DNA from: Dipteris shenzhenensis
Lineage: Eukaryota
Length of the DNA: 64,000 bases
Strand: one strand, 5' to 3'
NCBI GenBank assembly: GCA_047967505.1
Contig: CM106538.1
How positions within the stretch are numbered: position 1 is the stretch's first letter; every line of letters begins with the position of its first letter. The position numbers were made by a program, and so were the translations under genes. Under the pieces are notes generated by a model, which worked only from the letters and a program-made list of their open reading frames with translations, did no database searches and had not been told where the DNA came from. Positions 5,896 through 35,959 of this stretch are shown here, one piece after another.

Positions 5896-8177
5896 AAGGC
5901 CAACCACTGCACCCCTAGGAAGAGAGTATCACAACCAGTGCCCCAATCCTCTTCCGGGCCAACAACAGGGCATCCAACTTAGTAGGAACTTAGTAGGAAT
6001 GGCTGTAGCAAAGAGTGTAGAAGGAAGATGATAGCACAGCCAACAGAAAGAGCTTGTTTCAGCCCGAAACAGCTCCAGAAGTAGGATGAGAAGCGGACAG
6101 CAAACTTTGGTAGGAGAGATCTACCTAGGAGTGTCTTCCAACACTAGAAAGGATCAGAGAGAAGTGCGTCTAGCAAGCTGTAGCAGATCAGCCAAGAATG
6201 CGTCCACCAGAACAGAGTTTACAGCCCACAAACAGCTCCGTTTTCAGTGTGCCTTGCAACAGGCAGGAGTAGGAAGAGAGGCGCCCATGAGTATGACTTC
6301 AGATGTAGAAAAGAACTTTTGTCGCGAAGAAAGTCGAAAACAGCCTCAAAAATGGCCCAGAATGAAGGCGTCCAAGTCCCACAAGCGTGCCAGCAACAAA
6401 GGGCACCAAGGGGAGGAGAACTGTCGCGAAGGAAGCATGAAATTCGAGTTCAGCAAGGAGAGGGAGAGCTACAGAAATATGCCATGAAGAGAATGAGGCT
6501 GCCCTGGTAGGGGTGAAGTCTCAAAACAGAAAGGAGAGCCAAGGAAGGGATCTAAGGGCTTCTAGAGGTGACACAAGGCAAGCAGATAGGCCACCAGGAG
6601 ACACCTAGGCAAAATGAGGTGTGGGATTTTTAATGCCCCTAGGGGGTCAAATGGCACACCATGACCCTAATGCAAAGGAACCAATGACCCTATTTTGAAG
6701 GATCTCTAGGGGGCCAGTTTTTAAAGGATGACCCCATTGAACCAAACCAATGACCTTAGAAAATGAAACCACTCTAATAGCATCAGGAGTTGCACTTGTT
6801 GCACATAAAATCATAGGTACCTTTTGGGCATTAACTAAGGGCCCTAGCCTGGTACCCTAGGCCAAATTCATTGACAGTTAGTTTAGACACTTCACCATCA
6901 CCACCACGTCCCCGTGACATACCCCCCTCTTGAAACAGCAAACTATCTTGTTGGCTGTCCCAAAATTACAGCAAATAGAAAAGGGTGTCACAATAGGCAT
7001 AAAACAGCCCATAATCAATAGTAGTACATCACATGAAGTACCAAAAATACAATGTACATACGGCAAGACTGCAGATCCATCCGTATGTCAGTGTATCAAC
7101 CAACTGGAGTGTCATGATCACTCATCGTAGAAGGATCATGGCAGAAACAGTCAGCATCAGTGCCTCGGGTGAAACCGCAGTGTCACCAAGCGACCTCTAG
7201 ATATCTTGTGAGTCTGTCTGCATTGTGGGTGTGGAGGTGCTACCGCCCCCATGAGCATCCGGTAATGCTCTACTGAACCGGCATGAGAGACTACCGTAGT
7301 AGGCTTGAGACGAAATGCCTCAAGGTAGAGCTGTAAAATCTGAGGTGAATCTGCCAATTCACTCTCTTTCATCCAGATCGCATCGTTTGCAGGATAGTTC
7401 TTGCACTTCGCACGATAGCGTCTAGTAACTCTACCATTAACTTTCCGTTCCTTGTGTGCCACAATCTGCTGAAGAATCAAGACCTCATCTTGCTCATCAA
7501 CTTCAGGCTGCTCTTCAACTGGCATATCCTGTGGCACTTCTCCATGAAAAGGCTTCAGCAAGCTAACATGGAAAGGATTGTGGATGGTCCACTGCTCAGG
7601 TAGCTTCAGCCTGTAAGCTACCTCATTGATCTTATCAAGAACTTGAAAGGGGCCGTAGTACCTCATATTCAGCTTAGTGTACAGCTTTACCTTCCCTTTC
7701 TTGTTCTTGAGGCGTGCTTCAAGAAAATGCAGCAGCACCCAATCACCTTCAGTGAAAACCAAGCCCCTGTGATGCTTATCTGCAGCTCTTTTCTGTTTAT
7801 CTTGGGTGCATTGGAGGGCACATACTCATCTGCCACACAATTTCTCCTTTGTATGCAAGATAGGAGGAATCTTCCTCGCTCCTTCCACTATTTCAAAAGG
7901 TGCCTTACCCGTGGAAGAGTGCACTGTATTGTTATATGCATACTCAATCAGTGGCAAGTACTGTTCCCACTTTGTTTTGTGCTCAGACACATAGCATTGG
8001 AGCAAATCCAAAGCTGTAGAATTTGCCTCTTCTGATTGACCATCAGACTGTGGATGATAAGAAGATGAAAACAGCAGTGAGGTTCCCATGTCTTCAAACA
8101 AACCTCTCCAGAACATGCTGGTCATCCGTGGATCTCTATCGCTCACGATAGACTCAGGCATCCCATGATACTTGAAA

Positions 8178-10393
8178 GAAAGAAAGAAAGAAAGTTTATT
8201 AAAGTCTTCGGAAGACCGATGGGTCTATGAGACTGTGAAAATCCTGATACAACGAGCTGTGGTAGTGGAGCTACTAAACGAGCGTCCATACCAATGCAAA
8301 ATGCAAAAATGCAGAATGGCAGTACTAAGTCCTAAGTCCTAATAGTCATGTCGATGGTCGACTATATATCAATCTCAGCATCATCATCAATATCATCATC
8401 ATCCCCAGCAACAGCAAGATATTAGGATGGATGAGGCAGTGGAGGCATGAAGTCGGCTAGAGTGCTGTCGGCCACTCAGAGGTGGGGTCCTGGCACGTCT
8501 CTTGGTCGCAGCTCTGTGTCTAACCAGGGCTATTGTGACCCGCGTCGGTCGGGCTCCGACTCTAAACAAGGAGGGGATGTCTCCAAGTGTGATCTGTGTG
8601 TCGACCCTCTGTCTGAGTTGTCGGGTCACGGGCTCTGGGTCACGGTCATGTCGAGGCCTCGTCTCGTTGGGGTCCATGTGATCTAGCTGAAAGAACTCCG
8701 TGATAGATTTCTGAGAGGGATCAACCGAGGAAGAAGTTTGCTCCTGTCTCTGTGCTTGGAGTATCCTCTCGTGGTGTCTAAGTGCCTCGTGAATGAAACC
8801 TACCAAACACCATTGGTCTGGGTAGGAGAGGAAATGGGCTAAACTCCCATAACTATCTCTGAAGAGGCAGTGGAAACGTCCTTGGATCTCATAGTACACA
8901 GGACACTTGAAGATGAAATGCTCCTCTGTCTCAACCTCCTGTATGTCACATAGTGTGCATATGCGCCGCTCCCTGGGTAGTCGCTGTGCTCTGCCACTCT
9001 CAATGCGAAGTCTGTGTGAAGAGACCCGGAACTGCCGAAGAGATCCTCATCGAGTGGGGTAGGTGAATCTGTGTGTATCCTGGTGGGTCAATGAAACCCT
9101 CCGGTGTGATATGTAAGAAGTGATCTCTGTAGAAGCTAAGCTTCACTGGGAGTTCACTTGGTTCCAACCAGGTCCGAAAAGTGTGTAGCTGTAGTAGATC
9201 CTCACGGATAACCTGGTTGACCTCGTGTGATAAGAGGGGAGAGAACGGAGCATCCATGCTATACTGGAAGGGAGGTAGTCTATCCATGTGGAGCCCCAGT
9301 CGCTCAAACCATCTCTCTGTATGTGCATACCAGCACCTCTGATCTCCTCCTGCTGCAAGTGCCATAGAAGAGGATAGAGCTATCCATGGTAGCCTGCTAC
9401 GCCCCGAGGTATAATCCCCATATTCCCTAACTTGGTACAGATATGTGATGACCTGAAATGTAGAATCTAGCTGTAAAGGGGGCATAGTTGTAAGACACGT
9501 TAAGACACGACACGTTAGACACGCTTTAGACACGAGTGTCTAGAGTGTCTTAAAGATAAGACACGTAAGACACGTTTGCCAGTTATAATAATATTAAATT
9601 TAAAAATATAAGTATGTATAAGTACAACTTGGTAGCATGACTAGCTGCTAGTTTTAACATTTTAGAAGTACAATGTGGTTAAGAGTGAAGACTTCTCACT
9701 TGTCAATTAAGACTTAAAAGTTAAATGCCAAGACTCGAGACTTAAAAGTTCAAAGTTAAGACTCAAGACTCATGGGCTTGCAAGTCATGACTCACAACTT
9801 TAAGGTTTAAAGTGCAAACCAACAATTTGATATTTAAAATTCCAAATTACAACTTAAAAAGAGCCTAGAGGGCTACATAGATGATAGACTGATAGTCAAT
9901 CATCATAGATCAATAAAGCTTAAACATATGTCATAAATAACTCGGCCAATGCCAACAATCTAGTAGTCACATGTTGACATGAATGAAATCTGAATCCTCA
10001 TACATATAACTGAATGGGAAACTTTTGAATGTCAAGAGTCAAGTCTCTCAAGACTCATCCTAGTCTGAATCTGCTAGGTCACTGCCAGTGCTGGATCCAA
10101 AGTCACCATCAGTGATAGTGTTAGCCTCACTATCATACTGTGGCTCCTTAGGCACCTCCTCCTCCTCCTCCTCCTCCTCCTCCTCATCCTTCCCCTCCTC
10201 CTCGTCCAAGGCATTTGCAAAGTCTAAGGTTCCAAAACGTAGGGTTTTTAAAATTTATAAAAAATTTAGAGTGTGTCTAAACGTGTCTTAAGGTAAGACA
10301 CGTGTCTTAAGTGTCTTACCATAAGACACGAGTGTCTTAACAACCATGAAAGGGGGTGACCCAAACTCAGCCTGAATGATCTGGTGAGGAACG
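8178..10393 (-). mobile_element. 5'-truncated non-LTR retrotransposon, RTEX-like, inserted in the Gypsy A integrase
   Basis: Minus-strand ORF remnant reads SSHRLRIESGR...RICTLC...ETEEHFIFKCP (CCHC); AATAAA followed by a (TTTC)n tail at 8178-8200; Gypsy integrase sequence resumes on both sides with GAAA shared (8174-8177 and 10394-10397). Confidence 0.85.
9483..10348. mobile_element. Non-autonomous hAT element (866 bp)
   Basis: 8-bp TSD AAAGGGGG at 9475-9482 and 10349-10356; TIR CATAGTTGTAAGACAC / GTGTCTTAACAACCATG; subterminal AGACAC repeats; retains an acidic poly-Glu coding stub on the minus strand near 10080-10210. Confidence 0.92.
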
Positions 10394-13300
10394 GAAAACA
10401 GATTTTAAGAACTCCTTTGCCATCTGCTCGGAAGTAATCTTCTTCCTTATTGGAATGAAATGAGCTGAATCTGCAAATTATGGTTCATATGCCATTATGA
10501 CCAGAAAGAGTGCGAGGGAGATCAAAAACAAAATCCATGGCGATACTTTGCCATGGTCTATCTGGGATAGGCAAAGGCTGAAGTAAACCGGGCTGTTTCT
10601 GCGTGTCATACTTCACCTTTTGACAAGTGATGCATGTTCTGACATAAGCTTCAACATCCTTCCGAAGTGAAGGCCAATAAAAGTAGTGCTCTACTGCTTT
10701 GACTATAGCCTCAATACCCCTATGCCCTGCATACGGTGGGGCATGACTTTCAATGAGCGCCTTATGCCTCAATGGCTGCGTTACACACAGCTTTCCATGC
10801 ATCATCATAAAACCCTCCTTAAGTGTGTAATGATCATGCCTATTGCCCTCCATAAGCTGATCATAAATACGTGCAAAGGCATATCTGTAGCATACTGCTC
10901 CTTCATGGCATCTAGCTCATTGTGATAAGCAATGGTAAGTGCAGATACCTGTGGTTTCTTGGACATAGCTTCCATACGTGGCCTTCTTGAAAGTACATCA
11001 ACCACTACATTTTTCTTTCCAGCCACATGTACAATCTGAAAATGAAAAATGGAAAGGAAGTTTGCCCATCTCATGTGCTTTTCTGATAACTTTCTCTGAG
11101 TGAGAAAGTATTGCAGCGATTGATGATCAGTTTGCACATTGAAATCAGCACCTAAAAGATAGTGCTTCCACACAGTAAGAGCATGAATTACAGCTACCAA
11201 CTCTTGCTCATATACATTCATGTTGTGTTCAGCATCTTGGAGCAGCCTGCTCTCATATGCAACCACTCTGCCTTCCTGCATGAGTACTCCTCCAACACTA
11301 TTGCCGCTTGCATCACATTGAAGAACAAAAGGCTTTCGCAAGTCTGGCAAAATGATGATAGGATTTGAGCATAGCTTTTCTTTCAGCTCATTAAATGCTG
11401 CAATTTCTTTCTTCCCCCAACAGAAAGGCACTGCCTTCTTCTCCAAAGCATGTAAGGGTGAAGCTATCTCAGCAAAATAGCGAATGAAGCGTGTGTAGTA
11501 TGAATACAAGCCAAGAAAACTACGAACTTCATGTAGGTTCTTCAATGGAGGCCAATTCTTGATTGCCTCTATCTTGGCAGGGTCCATTCTCACTCCATCT
11601 CGTGAGATGATGTGTCCCAAGAAATGTATCTCTGGCATGAAGAACTCACTCTTCTTGGTATTGACCAGTAAACTGTGTTTCTTGAGCTTTGCAAATACAA
11701 CTGCCAAGTGTTGCCGATGCTTCTCTTTATCTTTCGAGTGCACAATAATGTCATCAAAGAATGTACCCACAAACTTCCTGTGCTCTTTGAAAATGCGATC
11801 CATCATACAATTGAAGGTAGCAGGAGCATTGGTCAAACCAAATGGCATAACAAGAAACTCATAAAGCCCAAAAGTGGTCCTGAAGGCAGTCTTATGTACA
11901 TCTTCGGGCCTGATTCGTATCTAATGCTAACCACTCTTCAAGTCAATGCGACTGAAGATGGCTGATCCCTCTAATGGATCCAAGATATCATCAATGCGTG
12001 GAATAGGAAATCGATTCTTGATAGAGATCTTATTCAAAGCCCTGTAGTCAATACACATTCTCCAAGATCCATCCTTCTTCTGCACAAGTAGGACGGGAGA
12101 ACAATATGGAGAAGAGCTTGGCTGAATCAGCCCCTTCTGTAACAATTCATTCACCTGACACATGATCTCCTCCTGCTGTGCCGCACTCACCTTGTATGGT
12201 GGTCGGTTAGGTGGATAACTTTCAAGAATGATATCAATAGTATGATCTTCTGGCCTCTCAGGAGGTAACTCCTTTGGAAGTTCATTTGAAAAACAATCTT
12301 GAAACTGAAATAAAAACTCAGCGTGCTGTTTTTCCAGCTTGGAAAAATCAGAGTTATCCTCATCAGGTTCTTTTTCTTTGACAAAAATCAAATATGCAGA
12401 AAGATGCTTTTTCATTATAGAGGAAATCGCCGGAGCGGATACAATTGGGACTGATTCTCCCTTCGAATTTACATCAATGACTTGGGTTTTACCCCTATAA
12501 GTCAAAGTAAGCTTCTTGTCATGTGTATCTATGATAGTATGCACATGGTACATCCAAGGCATCCCCAGCAAAACATCACACTTAGGTAAAGGCATCACAT
12601 AGAAATCCTTATCCTTGAATGTGAATCCGTAACTCCCTATGATAGGGGTGATAGGGGTAGTAAGCTTCGGATTAGCCCTATTGGCCTCACAAAGAGGACC
12701 AATCTCCTCTAGTCGAAGACCCAACTGAGCTGCAAGTTCAGGAGTAATGAAATTTGCTTTGGCTCCTGAATCAAAGAAGTAGAGACAATGCTGATCCCGT
12801 AGCTTGCCCCATGCTCTGCACATGTCTGTCTTCTCTCATCATGCTCACCCCCAATAATGTCAAGTATATGGCCAGCACTTGGCTTGGGCTTCTTGCCTCT
12901 AAGGTCCTCTCTATTGCCTTGATTAGTGTCAGCCCGAGTTGCTGCAGGTTCTTTCCTCTTCTTGTTAGGACAATCTGCTGCCCTATGACCCGTCTCTTTG
13001 CAGAGAAAACACCTCCCTTCAGTAAACAACTTGTTCCTCTCCTCAGGAGTGAGAGAAGAGGGCTGCTGTTTTCTCCTTTGTCCTGCCACAAACTTTGATT
13101 TCAGAGGGACTTTTCCAGCTTGCTGTGGTTTCTTTCGCTCCTCCTTGAAGTTGCTCTTGAAACCTGAGACTCTACCTTGCATGAGTAAGTTGTGTTGGCA
13201 TTCTCTATCAACTGTGACATGCTGGAAATGTCTTAGTGCAATAGTCCCTCAACTCTTTGGGAAGACCACAACAATACTTTTCAGCTTGCTCTGAAATAGG

Positions 13301-14552
13301 GACTGTTCTGTAAGAGCTCACAGGTAGAAGCGTATCCCAAAACGTAATCCTAAAGATTCCTGCATTCCCTAGCATTCAAATTATGCCACTGAGTCATGAC
13401 ATCCACTTCAAAAGTAGTGGTGAGCCATGCGGCTGAGAATGCCTTTTGAATTCAACCCATATAGCAGGTGTTTGGCCCTGAAGGAGAAGGTTAGACCACC
13501 ATTGCATGGCATTTACCTTGAGGAATGTGGCTGCCTTCTTGATTTTCGAAGACTCTCTGAAGTACCCTCCAGCAAAAGTCAAATCAAATTGCTGCAAGAA
13601 AGTAAGAGCCTTCATTCTATCTGCATGACCATTAAAGGTCTCAAAGATCATTGCTGCCCCCCTTCCTTGTAATCCTTCATCTTGAGCCTAGGCTCCAGCT
13701 GATTATAGCCAGGGGGCTGCAAATAAAGGGCTGCTGTCCTTGGGGTCCCTCAGGAGCTTGAAGAACACCCCCCACAGCTGGGTTTGCAGGCACATGTGGT
13801 ACTGACTGAGTGTGTGACATCATAGGGCTGCCTCCTTGCAATCCAGGCTGTATCCCCACATTAGCATATAAAGAATTTGGGGCTCGCTGTGAGGTCATGG
13901 CCTGAAAAGTGGATCCTCCTCCAAGGTGTGTAGGCTGAACCACATATTGTGGTTGGGCTTCCCGCCCTTGCTGCACATTCTGAGCATTGCTACCATGCTC
14001 ATTCCCATTTGGTCCCTGCCTTTGTGGCACTGCAAGTGCCTGTACCAATGGTGTAGGTAGCTCTGATAGTGGCTGTACCATTGGTGTCGGTGGGTTTGGT
14101 AGTGGCTATCCTCACATGCATCTGTGGACCTTGAATGGGTTGTGCCTCTGCCCTTGTCATCAAAGCTAGATTATGCACAATCTCAGCAAAGCTCTGAGTG
14201 AGCTGAGTCAAAACTTGCAACACAGAAGCCATCTATGTTTGCATTATTGCCATAGCATTTGCCTGCACGCTTGGGTCAACACCCAATGCAACTGTATCCA
14301 TAGTATTTTGCATTTGTGGAGCTGGCTGCCCCAATGCATTAACTTGAACATTCTACCCTTCATGGGCTGCATTTTGCACTCTTATTCCAGGGTGTGCTCC
14401 CCTTATCTATGGGTCTGGGTCAAACTATGAGTCTGCGTCATAACCAAGTCTGATATTATCCATATCCAAAAGCAATGGATAGCTGTACCAAAATCAGCAA
14501 AGGCTTTCTCTATCCAAGCTGCCCAGGGACTCCTCTGGATGATTTGATGAGG

Positions 14553-34619: not shown

Positions 34620-35866
34620 GTGCAGTTCGAGGTGGACTATTATTGGCCTTGCAGGCCCACATGGACTGTCTCCATGGCAGTCCTACGTGGTCTGTTGTGC
34701 TGCTGTTTGGAAGCCTTTGTGGCTACCCTAGGTAGCTGTAGCCTGCCACAAGTGCAAATGCATCTCTCTCTCATTTTCAGGATCCTCCGATCAAGACTAG
34801 GTATGAATGGGAGCCTTTTTGGGGGCTACATCTATTGGAGACAGACTAGGCTCGGGTAGAGAGGCTTCAGGTTCTCATGCTTTCTCTGATGATTCGTAGT
34901 AAGGATTCAATCCCACGTCAAATAGTTTTGGCTGAGTTCGGGGCATCCCCACTACCGCTCAATGTGGGTTTTCAGGTCATCGCATACTTGCACCACAGGG
35001 TGATATAGGCTTCCTTTGTTGGCCTTATCTTCTCCATGGCATTGGCAGCAGAGGGTGACTAGTGGTGCTGGTATGCACACACATGCAGATGGTTTGAGAA
35101 CCTGCGGCTCCACATAGACATGCTACCTCCCTTCTAGTACAGGGTCGAGGTCCCCTCTATCTTGCTCACATATCAAGAGGTGAACTAGGTGATCTAGGAG
35201 GATCTGCTACAGGTACAAATGTTCAGGATTTGGTTGGCACTTCGTGATCTCCCTGTGAAGCTCAGCTTCTATAGAGACCACTGTCTATGGATTTCAGCAG
35301 AGGGGTTCATTGACCCACCGTACACATGGATCCACCTCCCCCACTCTGTGAGGATATCGATAGGGCAATTCTCTCCGTGTTGAGAGTGGTCAGGCAGAGG
35401 GCATATCTAGAGAGGTCCGCATCTGTACCTTATGTGAATCCCGGGAGATCGAGTTAGAGGAGCATTTCACTTTTAAATGCCTTGTGTACTATGAGATCAG
35501 AGGCCGCTATCATTGCCTTTTTAAATGCCTTATGTACTATGAGATCAAAGGTCGCTATCATTGCCTTTTTAGAGATGGTTTTGGATCCCTACCGAGTTTC
35601 CTACCCTACCCAGACTAGATATGCTTTGTTGCCTTCATCTATGAGGTTGTCCGACACAGGGAGCGCTTGTTGAGGGCACGCATGGGAGATCAGGATACAA
35701 AGCTAGACTCCACTCAAAGTATGATCATTGAGTTTTTCCAGCCAGACAACATCAAACAGTAGGACCCATGGAGGTGGCGGCTGCTAGGGACCTGAGCCAA
35801 AGTTAGAGACATATCAGGCTCGTTGGCGCACTAAGGCACAGATCACATTAGGGGACCTTCCTCATT
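34620..35866 (+). mobile_element. Second, more degenerate RTEX-like LINE copy (3' part of the ORF), interrupted by Copia F; start approximate
   Basis: Colinear with the reverse complement of 8580-10393 (QIVLAEFGASP, WYAHT, KLSFYRDH, EGFIDPP, RICTLC...EEHF.FKC, QITLGD); 48-bp internal tandem duplication near 35470-35570. Confidence 0.8.
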
Positions 35867-35959
35867 TGGTATCAGAGCAGGTTGAAGAGCTCCGTGCTCC
35901 CTGCTCCCTTCAGCTCCTACTCTTTGCCTCCAGCTCCAACCTCCCCGTTCAGCTTCAGC

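Follow-up and report, generated by a model that had tools for sequence, protein, structure and literature searches.

Two fragments of a long interspersed nuclear element (LINE) lie in a 64,000-nucleotide stretch of the Dipteris shenzhenensis genome (GenBank assembly GCA_047967505.1, contig CM106538.1; the whole stretch is called the window below), and both encode, near the end of their second open reading frame (ORF2), a short motif that resembles the PCNA-interacting protein (PIP) box. The motif reads QKSITEFF in copy A, on the minus strand, and QSMIIEFF in copy B, on the plus strand. Aligned across the relatives of these fragments, it is a real family-wide short linear motif that is conserved at the protein level far above its flanks. 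The ORF2 protein (ORF2p) tail rather probably binds host PCNA through this motif, which is predicted to sit in a disordered C-terminal extension. The two window copies are best explained as 3' fossils of a LINE family of the apurinic/apyrimidinic endonuclease (APE) type that occurs in gymnosperms, ferns, and lycophytes. Both copies are broken and cannot be active, so nothing functional is at stake for the window alone.

Conservation of the tail motif across the LINE family

Copy A retains an open frame of 215 aa that was used as the query in HMMER/phmmer searches. It matched 3767 proteins at E ≤ 1e-3 (109 at E ≤ 1e-10), of which the best 150 were used, each relative being the representative of a 50%-identity cluster. 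These 150, together with earlier matches and copy A itself, form an alignment of 156 sequences. The motif columns are covered with regular spacing and enough flank in 64 of them; three sequences were dropped as too short and six for irregular spacing, and the other 83 are gapped at the anchor columns used. With the eight motif positions numbered P1 to P8 as in a PIP box, Q stands at P1 in 28 of the 64 sequences, I at P4 in 51, T at P5 in 49, and F or Y at P7 and P8 in 52 and 49, respectively. The family consensus is Q-[RQ]-x-I-T-[SDE]-F-F, about 55–65 residues past the last knuckle cysteine. A fully canonical box, Q-x-x-[ILM]-x-x-[FY]-[FY], occurs in 22/64; a further 23/64 have the I/F/F trident without the canonical Q, which comes one place late in 10 of them. 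The shorter pattern [ILMV]..[FY][FY] is accordingly kept in 45/64, and [ILMV]T.[FY][FY] in 42/64.

Information content at I, T, F, and F is 2.41, 1.85, 2.28, and 2.31 bits (all rows filled per column), compared with 0.45–0.97 bits in the adjacent tail columns, so that the first-pass annotation's check of the motif against its flanks came out in its favour. The motif positions are comparable to many core positions of the folded domain, and its x positions vary freely across the family. Canonical matches number 36 in 166 relatives, compared with 3.3 ± 1.7 (maximum 9) in 200 residue shuffles. The claim of conservation from the first-pass annotation therefore stands for I, F, and F and has to be relaxed for Q at P1. 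A separate alignment (A2) has the I, T, F, and F columns nearly invariant, but its rows were chosen for having the motif.

It is this family-wide conservation, not the window copies, that places the motif above chance. Between the two copies, DNA identity is 70.8% over 538 nt and protein identity is 48.9% over 131 aa; Q, I, E, F, and F of the motif are common to both, its x positions differ, and the codons for Q, both F residues, and the following D carry synonymous differences. The regular expression Q..[ILM]..[FY][FY] matches the six-frame translation of the window (127,996 residues) eight times, and two of these matches contain a stop; one such match in a tail is unremarkable because the pattern is not rare there. 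Reasoning from two copies as sufficient proof was thus rejected, the copies being homologous and the pattern not rare. Contigs of related genomes, taken from four DNA runs at ≥80% likeness, add a few changes within 8690–8713: the four listed are TTT>TTC (F), ACG>ACC (T), and two in the K codon, an x position, while 82 less-supported differences fall outside the listed changes. These changes are consistent with protein-level constraint and serve as supporting evidence only.

Longer relatives place the motif within ORF2p. A profile search of longer proteins gave 11 matches, nine of which have a canonical box at the usual distance past the knuckle (QKEITNFF, QSQITDFF, QAQLTDFF, QTQLTDFF, QSLITCFF, QRRISEFF, QRQITDFF, QTRLTDYF, and QRTITEFF); of the other two, one ends 19 residues past the knuckle and one is distant and has no such tail. 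P0157 (1228 aa), P0158 (1195), P0161 (1216), and P0163 (1254) have both Exo_endo_phos and RVT_1 above the Pfam cut-offs. The layout of the protein is an AP-endonuclease (EN), a reverse transcriptase (RT), a helical C-terminal domain with a Cys-His knuckle, and a predicted disordered tail of variable length. In all eight long ORF2 proteins the tail box is in frame, and the regular expression matches nowhere else in the protein; that test, which covers the regular expression only, gave no match between EN and RT in any of the eight. Motif and knuckle share one frame in all sequences in which the site is covered, the ORF2s of 1195–1254 aa among them. It follows that the box does not lie past the true stop codon of intact copies, and the proposal of a separately placed C-terminal motif agrees with its position past the knuckle. 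Four more distant ORF2s (P0085, P0116, P0166, and P0066) are without the motif; the first three stop soon past the folded domain, as does P0066, possibly at a contig end. Pfam scans gave no RNase H family in these ORF2 proteins.

The assignment to a LINE clade is less specific. An APE endonuclease followed by an RT in one ORF2 is common to most LINE clades and gives no support to RTEX in particular, the affinity suggested at first; passages on RTEX in PMC5753468, PMC11203168, and PMC3905857 contain no sequence diagnostics for it, and a look-up in the ESM Atlas likewise gave none. Against PDB sequences (phmmer), P0157 matches R2 at E 1.2e-26 and human ORF2p at E 4.1e-23. Similarity of the RT to human ORF2p that is no better than to R2 suggests that the family is not a close L1 relative and that its motif was probably acquired independently. 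A 30-aa window peptide had no PDB match at E ≤ 10, a query too short to be informative.

Named relatives come from Taxus chinensis, the lycophyte Diphasiastrum complanatum, Adiantum nelumboides, Ceratopteris richardii, and Pteridium aquilinum (transcripts). Flowering plants are absent from these few named relatives, which proves nothing about their wider occurrence. A quick tree of 61 rows, built from 100 domain columns without the motif, has all 20 Q-less forms inside one 31-row clade that holds the Taxus sequences (Shimodaira–Hasegawa-like approximate likelihood ratio test, SH-aLRT, 96). Canonical forms occupy every deep branch outside that clade, including copy A with its nearest relative P0008, and a 10-row clade with canonical forms holds the named fern sequences (SH-aLRT 99). 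This distribution over the deep branches suggests that the canonical box is probably ancestral and that Q was probably relaxed once while I-T-x-F-F was kept. States in which the motif is lost are scattered over the tree, as decay would give.

Several further features of the relatives were observed. P0037 and P0184 are ORFs of assembled Pteridium aquilinum transcripts (EukProt), and one of the two, at 1007 aa, shares ≥90% identity with a 1142-aa ORF2. At least one fern thus transcribes the family; for the stretch of the window itself, no RNA data set was listed. P0001, P0042, P0059, P0080, and P0164 (Taxus and Adiantum proteins, plus P0042) are chimeric gene models in which an N-terminal LINE knuckle-plus-tail is fused to AMP-binding, UvrD helicase, SLT, pseudouridine synthase, or PF08568 domains; they may reflect artefacts of annotation or the exonisation of LINE fragments. 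In P0160, P0162, P0058, P0037, and P0157, of which P0037 and the P0160 cluster come from Pteridium, the box is followed by a further tail block, G-[VT]-[TL]-[LI]-x-x-A-...-R-R-P-R, and by a conserved C-terminal end, L-L-x-P-x-[IV]-x-x-G-W-x. The tail thus consists of more than a low-complexity spacer with a single motif. A PIP degron, which in substrates of CRL4-Cdt2 consists of Thr-Asp at P5–P6 and a basic residue four places past the box, was considered and rejected: Thr-Asp occurs at P5–P6 in 14/64 sequences, and only one of the 64 (P0015) combines it with a basic residue at +4.

PCNA and other candidate partners of the motif

Much of this family follows the published rules for PIP boxes. 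As described in PMC8191301, a PIP box cannot do without its hydrophobic triad, Ile at P4 does at least as well as Met, FF is a common P7–P8 pair, and a positive residue at P2 or P3 is favourable together with an acceptor at P6. The same source states that Gln at P1 raises affinity and is not essential, Gln-less boxes still binding PCNA, and that Thr-Asp at P5–P6 is believed to be one source of the high affinity of p21 and pogo (PMC8191301). Residue by residue, the family consensus fits these rules well. The full pattern is present in both window copies, in 22/64 relatives, and in 9/11 long proteins; the motif stands above its flanks; and a one-turn helix is predicted at it within a low-confidence tail (AlphaFold2, AF2, from a shallow alignment).

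Two AF2 models describe this context. A model of the copy A fragment, made from a 32-row alignment whose rows were chosen for the motif (which biases the conservation line, not the fold), has a folded domain at residues 10–106 with block means of 56–92 and a low-confidence tail at 107–215. The sole helix in tail residues 107–171 is at 115–119, exactly ITEFF. In the full-length model of P0158, made from 20 rows only, the body from about 700 to 1120 is confident (block means mostly 77–94), and residues 1121–1181 have a predicted local distance difference test (pLDDT) score below 50. The box, at 1124–1131, comes just past a helix at 1099–1124 and is not docked onto the enzyme.

If the tail binds PCNA, the I/F/F trident would plug into the hydrophobic pocket of PCNA as a one-turn helix, with Q in the Q-pocket. 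The tail would then hold the particle of ORF2p and RNA on PCNA that has been loaded at 3'-OH or primer-template junctions, for which replication forks, repair patches, and the target-primed reverse-transcription intermediate itself are candidates. Such a tether might help target access or processivity, and might recruit finishing enzymes that are bound to PCNA, RNase H2 for example.

Known systems offer partial parallels. In p21, DNA polymerase delta p66, DNA ligase I, and FEN1, the same eight-residue pattern occurs in a disordered context and forms a single helical turn (PMC8191301, PMC4615156), although these are host replication and repair factors. PIP boxes are reported in the transposon-encoded enzymes of pogo, Tigger, and Lemi1, where their functional relevance is called unclear (PMC5371812); pogo shares with p21 the Thr-Asp at P5–P6 that is seen in part of the present family, but these enzymes are DNA transposases, not reverse transcriptases. 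The intron-encoded protein (IEP) of the group II intron RmInt1 is a retroelement RT that is guided to replication forks by its binding to the sliding clamp of the host (PMC6698660); it differs in being bacterial, in its use of another motif and of the beta clamp, and in belonging to an element without an endonuclease.

Human L1 offers both a comparison and a warning. Its ORF2p, like that of the present LINE family, is an APE-type ORF2 product with a canonical Q-x-x-h-x-x-a-a match, and L1 is described as needing PCNA for retrotransposition, PCNA being said to recruit RNase H2 (PMC10830420, PMC5371812). The L1 box (residues 407–415, in a helix at 404–419) lies between EN and RT in a folded helix of the tower/N-terminal extension, whereas the box of the present family lies past the Cys-His knuckle in a predicted disordered tail. 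The premise of the first-pass annotation that human ORF2p binds PCNA through this EN–RT box is now disputed (PMC7617806, PMC10830420): the PIP helix is described as anchoring the tower to the palm and fingers (PMC10830420), and a 2025 study places the L1 PCNA site at a wrist-domain 'PUB' motif on the basis of AlphaFold3, pull-downs, and mutants (PMC7617806). That newer proposed site is C-terminal to the RT (PMC7617806), as is the motif described here.

Several observations weigh against PCNA as the partner. By analogy, human L1 cautions that a canonical, conserved, and mutation-sensitive PIP match may be a structural helix, with PCNA placed elsewhere. Q is not at P1 in 36/64 sequences and is replaced or moved one place in the 31-row Taxus-containing clade (for example, TQRITSFF). 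The hydrophobic trident is missing in 19/64; these include chimeric gene models (P0001, P0042) and later-ranked matches, and the rest are read as decayed copies. Thr at P5 is near-invariant, at a position that is free in the PIP consensus, and may point to a different or additional reader. An excess of basic residues was not found in the motif flanks, where K+R make up 15.2% and 15.5% compared with 14.0% overall. The low pLDDT of the tail is weak evidence of disorder because the alignment is shallow (20 sequences).

Proteins of the Rev1 or Mlh1 type are readers of FF motifs, and the PIP-like motif could be read by a partner other than PCNA: a reader of hydrophobic/aromatic helical motifs, a chaperone or import factor, or the ORF1 protein of the element itself. 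The main hint in this direction is that Thr at P5 is kept as strongly as I and FF (49/64), to which may be added that Q is dispensable in a whole clade and that a disordered tail suits any short linear motif. Such a partner nevertheless appears unlikely, since the Q-bearing forms have the exact canonical eight-residue spacing in 22/64 sequences and 9/11 long proteins, the canonical forms hold all deep branches but those of a single clade, PCNA is still bound by boxes that lack Gln at P1 according to PMC8191301, and no result obtained here suggests another reader. The helix could instead be an intramolecular element that packs on the RT or C-terminal domain of ORF2p, or on bound RNA or DNA, in the active particle. 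The structural role described for the human L1 PIP helix (PMC10830420, PMC7617806) is a precedent, and AF2 places a short helix exactly at ITEFF; the undocked box of the P0158 model, in a 61-residue stretch of pLDDT <50 straight after a confident helix, speaks against a role of that kind, as do the linkers of variable sequence and length between the folded domain and the box. We regard intramolecular packing as improbable.

In some LINEs the reverse transcriptase recognises the 3' end of the RNA, and conservation of the motif might accordingly be sought at the RNA or DNA level, as a 3'-end recognition element in an incidentally open frame, or be put down to chance. The pattern does occur about once per 16,000 six-frame residues, and the window copies are related pseudogenes. 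The absence of any protein function is nonetheless extremely improbable: variation at the x positions and at synonymous third bases leaves I, T, F, and F in place, motif and knuckle share one frame wherever the site is covered, and 36 matches stand against 3.3 expected. Binding to PCNA is weighed here as the reading with rather good odds.

Fossil copies and their surroundings in the window

The window holds only two copies of the LINE, both 5'-truncated, and in each the motif follows a C-x2-C-x10-H-x4-C knuckle (Table 1). QKSITEFF and QSMIIEFF are where the first-pass annotation had placed them, with Q, I, E, F, and F in common, and its second block, QITLGD(I/L)P(S/H)L, likewise occurs in both copies, with the qualification that in copy B a frameshift between QSMIIEFF and QITLGDLPHL puts the two out of frame. 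Copy B has in-frame TAG stops at 35616–35618 and 35760–35762. A 48-bp tandem duplication inside its knuckle (35471–35571; 2.1 copies, 94% matches) doubles the second half of the zinc knuckle and a YYEI(R/K)GRYHCLF segment.

Table 1. Coordinates of LINE-derived and neighbouring features in the window
Feature	Position	Strand	Basis or remarks
LTR-retrotransposon pol, integrase split by LINE fragment and MITE	7157-8224 and 10485-14105	-	Pfam
215-aa open frame, copy A: end of ORF2 C-terminal domain, Cys-His knuckle, and tail	8399..9046	-	translation, phmmer
Probable original ORF2 stop (TAA) of copy A lineage	8422..8424	-	inferred from frame restored by 2 extra bases
Remnant of second C-terminal PIP-like box, out of frame: DSTLADFM, then 7 residues and stop	8446..8469	-	alternate-frame translation
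Second conserved tail block QITLGDIPSL, copy A	8567..8596	-	aligned with HIRVCDLPSM of P0008
PIP-box-like motif QKSITEFF, copy A	8690..8713	-	translation; aligns with I-T-x-F-F column block of LINE family
C-x2-C-x10-H-x4-C zinc knuckle, copy A (C30, C33, H43, C48)	8903..8959	-	translation
Upstream ORF2 piece, copy A (C-terminal domain before knuckle), other frame	9000..9539	-	tblastn
MITE-like insertion, ~860 bp, TAAGACACG-type inverted terminal sub-repeats	9490..10350	.	inverted repeats I1-I3
LINE copy B, decayed 3' fragment	34949..35868	+	two in-frame stops, one frameshift, 48-bp duplication
PIP-box-like motif QSMIIEFF, copy B	35715..35738	+	translation, alignment
QITLGDLPHL block, copy B	35839..35868	+	frame shifted relative to QSMIIEFF

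Copy A is a decayed fragment with a frameshift near 9000–9046; its upstream ORF2 piece matches copy B at 34949–35359 with 57% identity (tblastn). The copy A knuckle has the general C-x2-C-x(7-13)-H-x(3-5)-C pattern of LINE ORF2 proteins. Its four knuckle residues are among the best-conserved columns of the family alignment, and the knuckle scores 17.9 bits against Pfam zf-RVT (PF13966), for which the cut-off is 27.5. Summed contig depth over the knuckle-coding stretch 8861–8926 is about 1500–2000 in two large DNA runs, compared with 10–50 over the tail; at ≥80% likeness, the knuckle region is common to many more LINE copies or families of those two genomes than the tail is.

Near its 3' end, copy A has a 2-base deletion at 8456/8457 relative to contigs of related genomes. 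The two extra bases of those contigs would join the frame of the remnant box to the copy A ORF, and the frame so restored would have ...DFMPPLPHPS as its last residues, followed by a stop at 8424–8422, probably the original ORF2 stop of the copy A lineage. The C-termini of the nearest relatives are QSSIARFFFRPSI in P0008 and LLQGFFRPPI in P0097, and the sub-lineage of P0008, P0097, and copy A may carry a second PIP-like box beside the stop codon. Such a box at the extreme C-terminus was rejected as a family feature: [ILMV]..[FY][FY] occurs in the last 24 residues of 6/63 tails, compared with 5.1% of control windows.

Copy A is nested in the integrase region of a long terminal repeat (LTR) retrotransposon (Pfam), with protease, RVT_1, RT_RNaseH, and Integrase_H2C2 upstream and SH3_Tf2-1 downstream. 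An insertion that resembles a miniature inverted-repeat transposable element (MITE) appears to separate copy A from its last ~20–40 bases at ~10352–10372; the match of that flank to copy B is marginal, with a score of 27 compared with a shuffle maximum of 26. Both ends of the MITE-like element have nested sub-repeats of the TAAGACACG type, inverted as well as direct, and its interior contains a (CCT)n run. The integrase segments that flank the insert seem to encode overlapping parts (...TSEQMAKEFLKSVF compared with ...SSEDFNKLSFFLSFKYHG), which suggests that two different elements may be joined there, or that a rearrangement occurred.

Implications for LINEs of non-flowering land plants

Of the papers listed, those that treat LINEs together with PCNA concern human L1, the rest being general reviews or work on other retroelements. 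No report of a PIP box or of PCNA in plant LINEs was found in a search of the retroelement literature that left most subscription journals outside, in agreement with the first-pass annotation, which knew of none. It is conceivable, although we hold the full scenario only tentatively, that an old LINE lineage of lycophytes, ferns, and gymnosperms independently evolved a PIP box of the high-affinity type on its ORF2p tail, and that some sublineages gained a second box by the stop codon. If this is true, clamp capture would be convergent and would reflect a general need of APE-type target-primed reverse transcription, not a peculiarity of mammalian L1. The lineage would also offer a clean, separable peptide-PCNA interface, unlike the folded and disputed L1 site. 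The use of PCNA by LINEs is unsettled even for human L1 (PMC7617806), and a canonical, exposed box in the predicted disordered tail of a distant LINE family would be independent evolutionary evidence for clamp binding in target-primed reverse transcription. It would extend the links between transposons and sliding clamps, so far those of pogo-type transposases, L1, and group II introns, to the LINEs of non-flowering land plants, whose genomes are very large and rich in retroelements.

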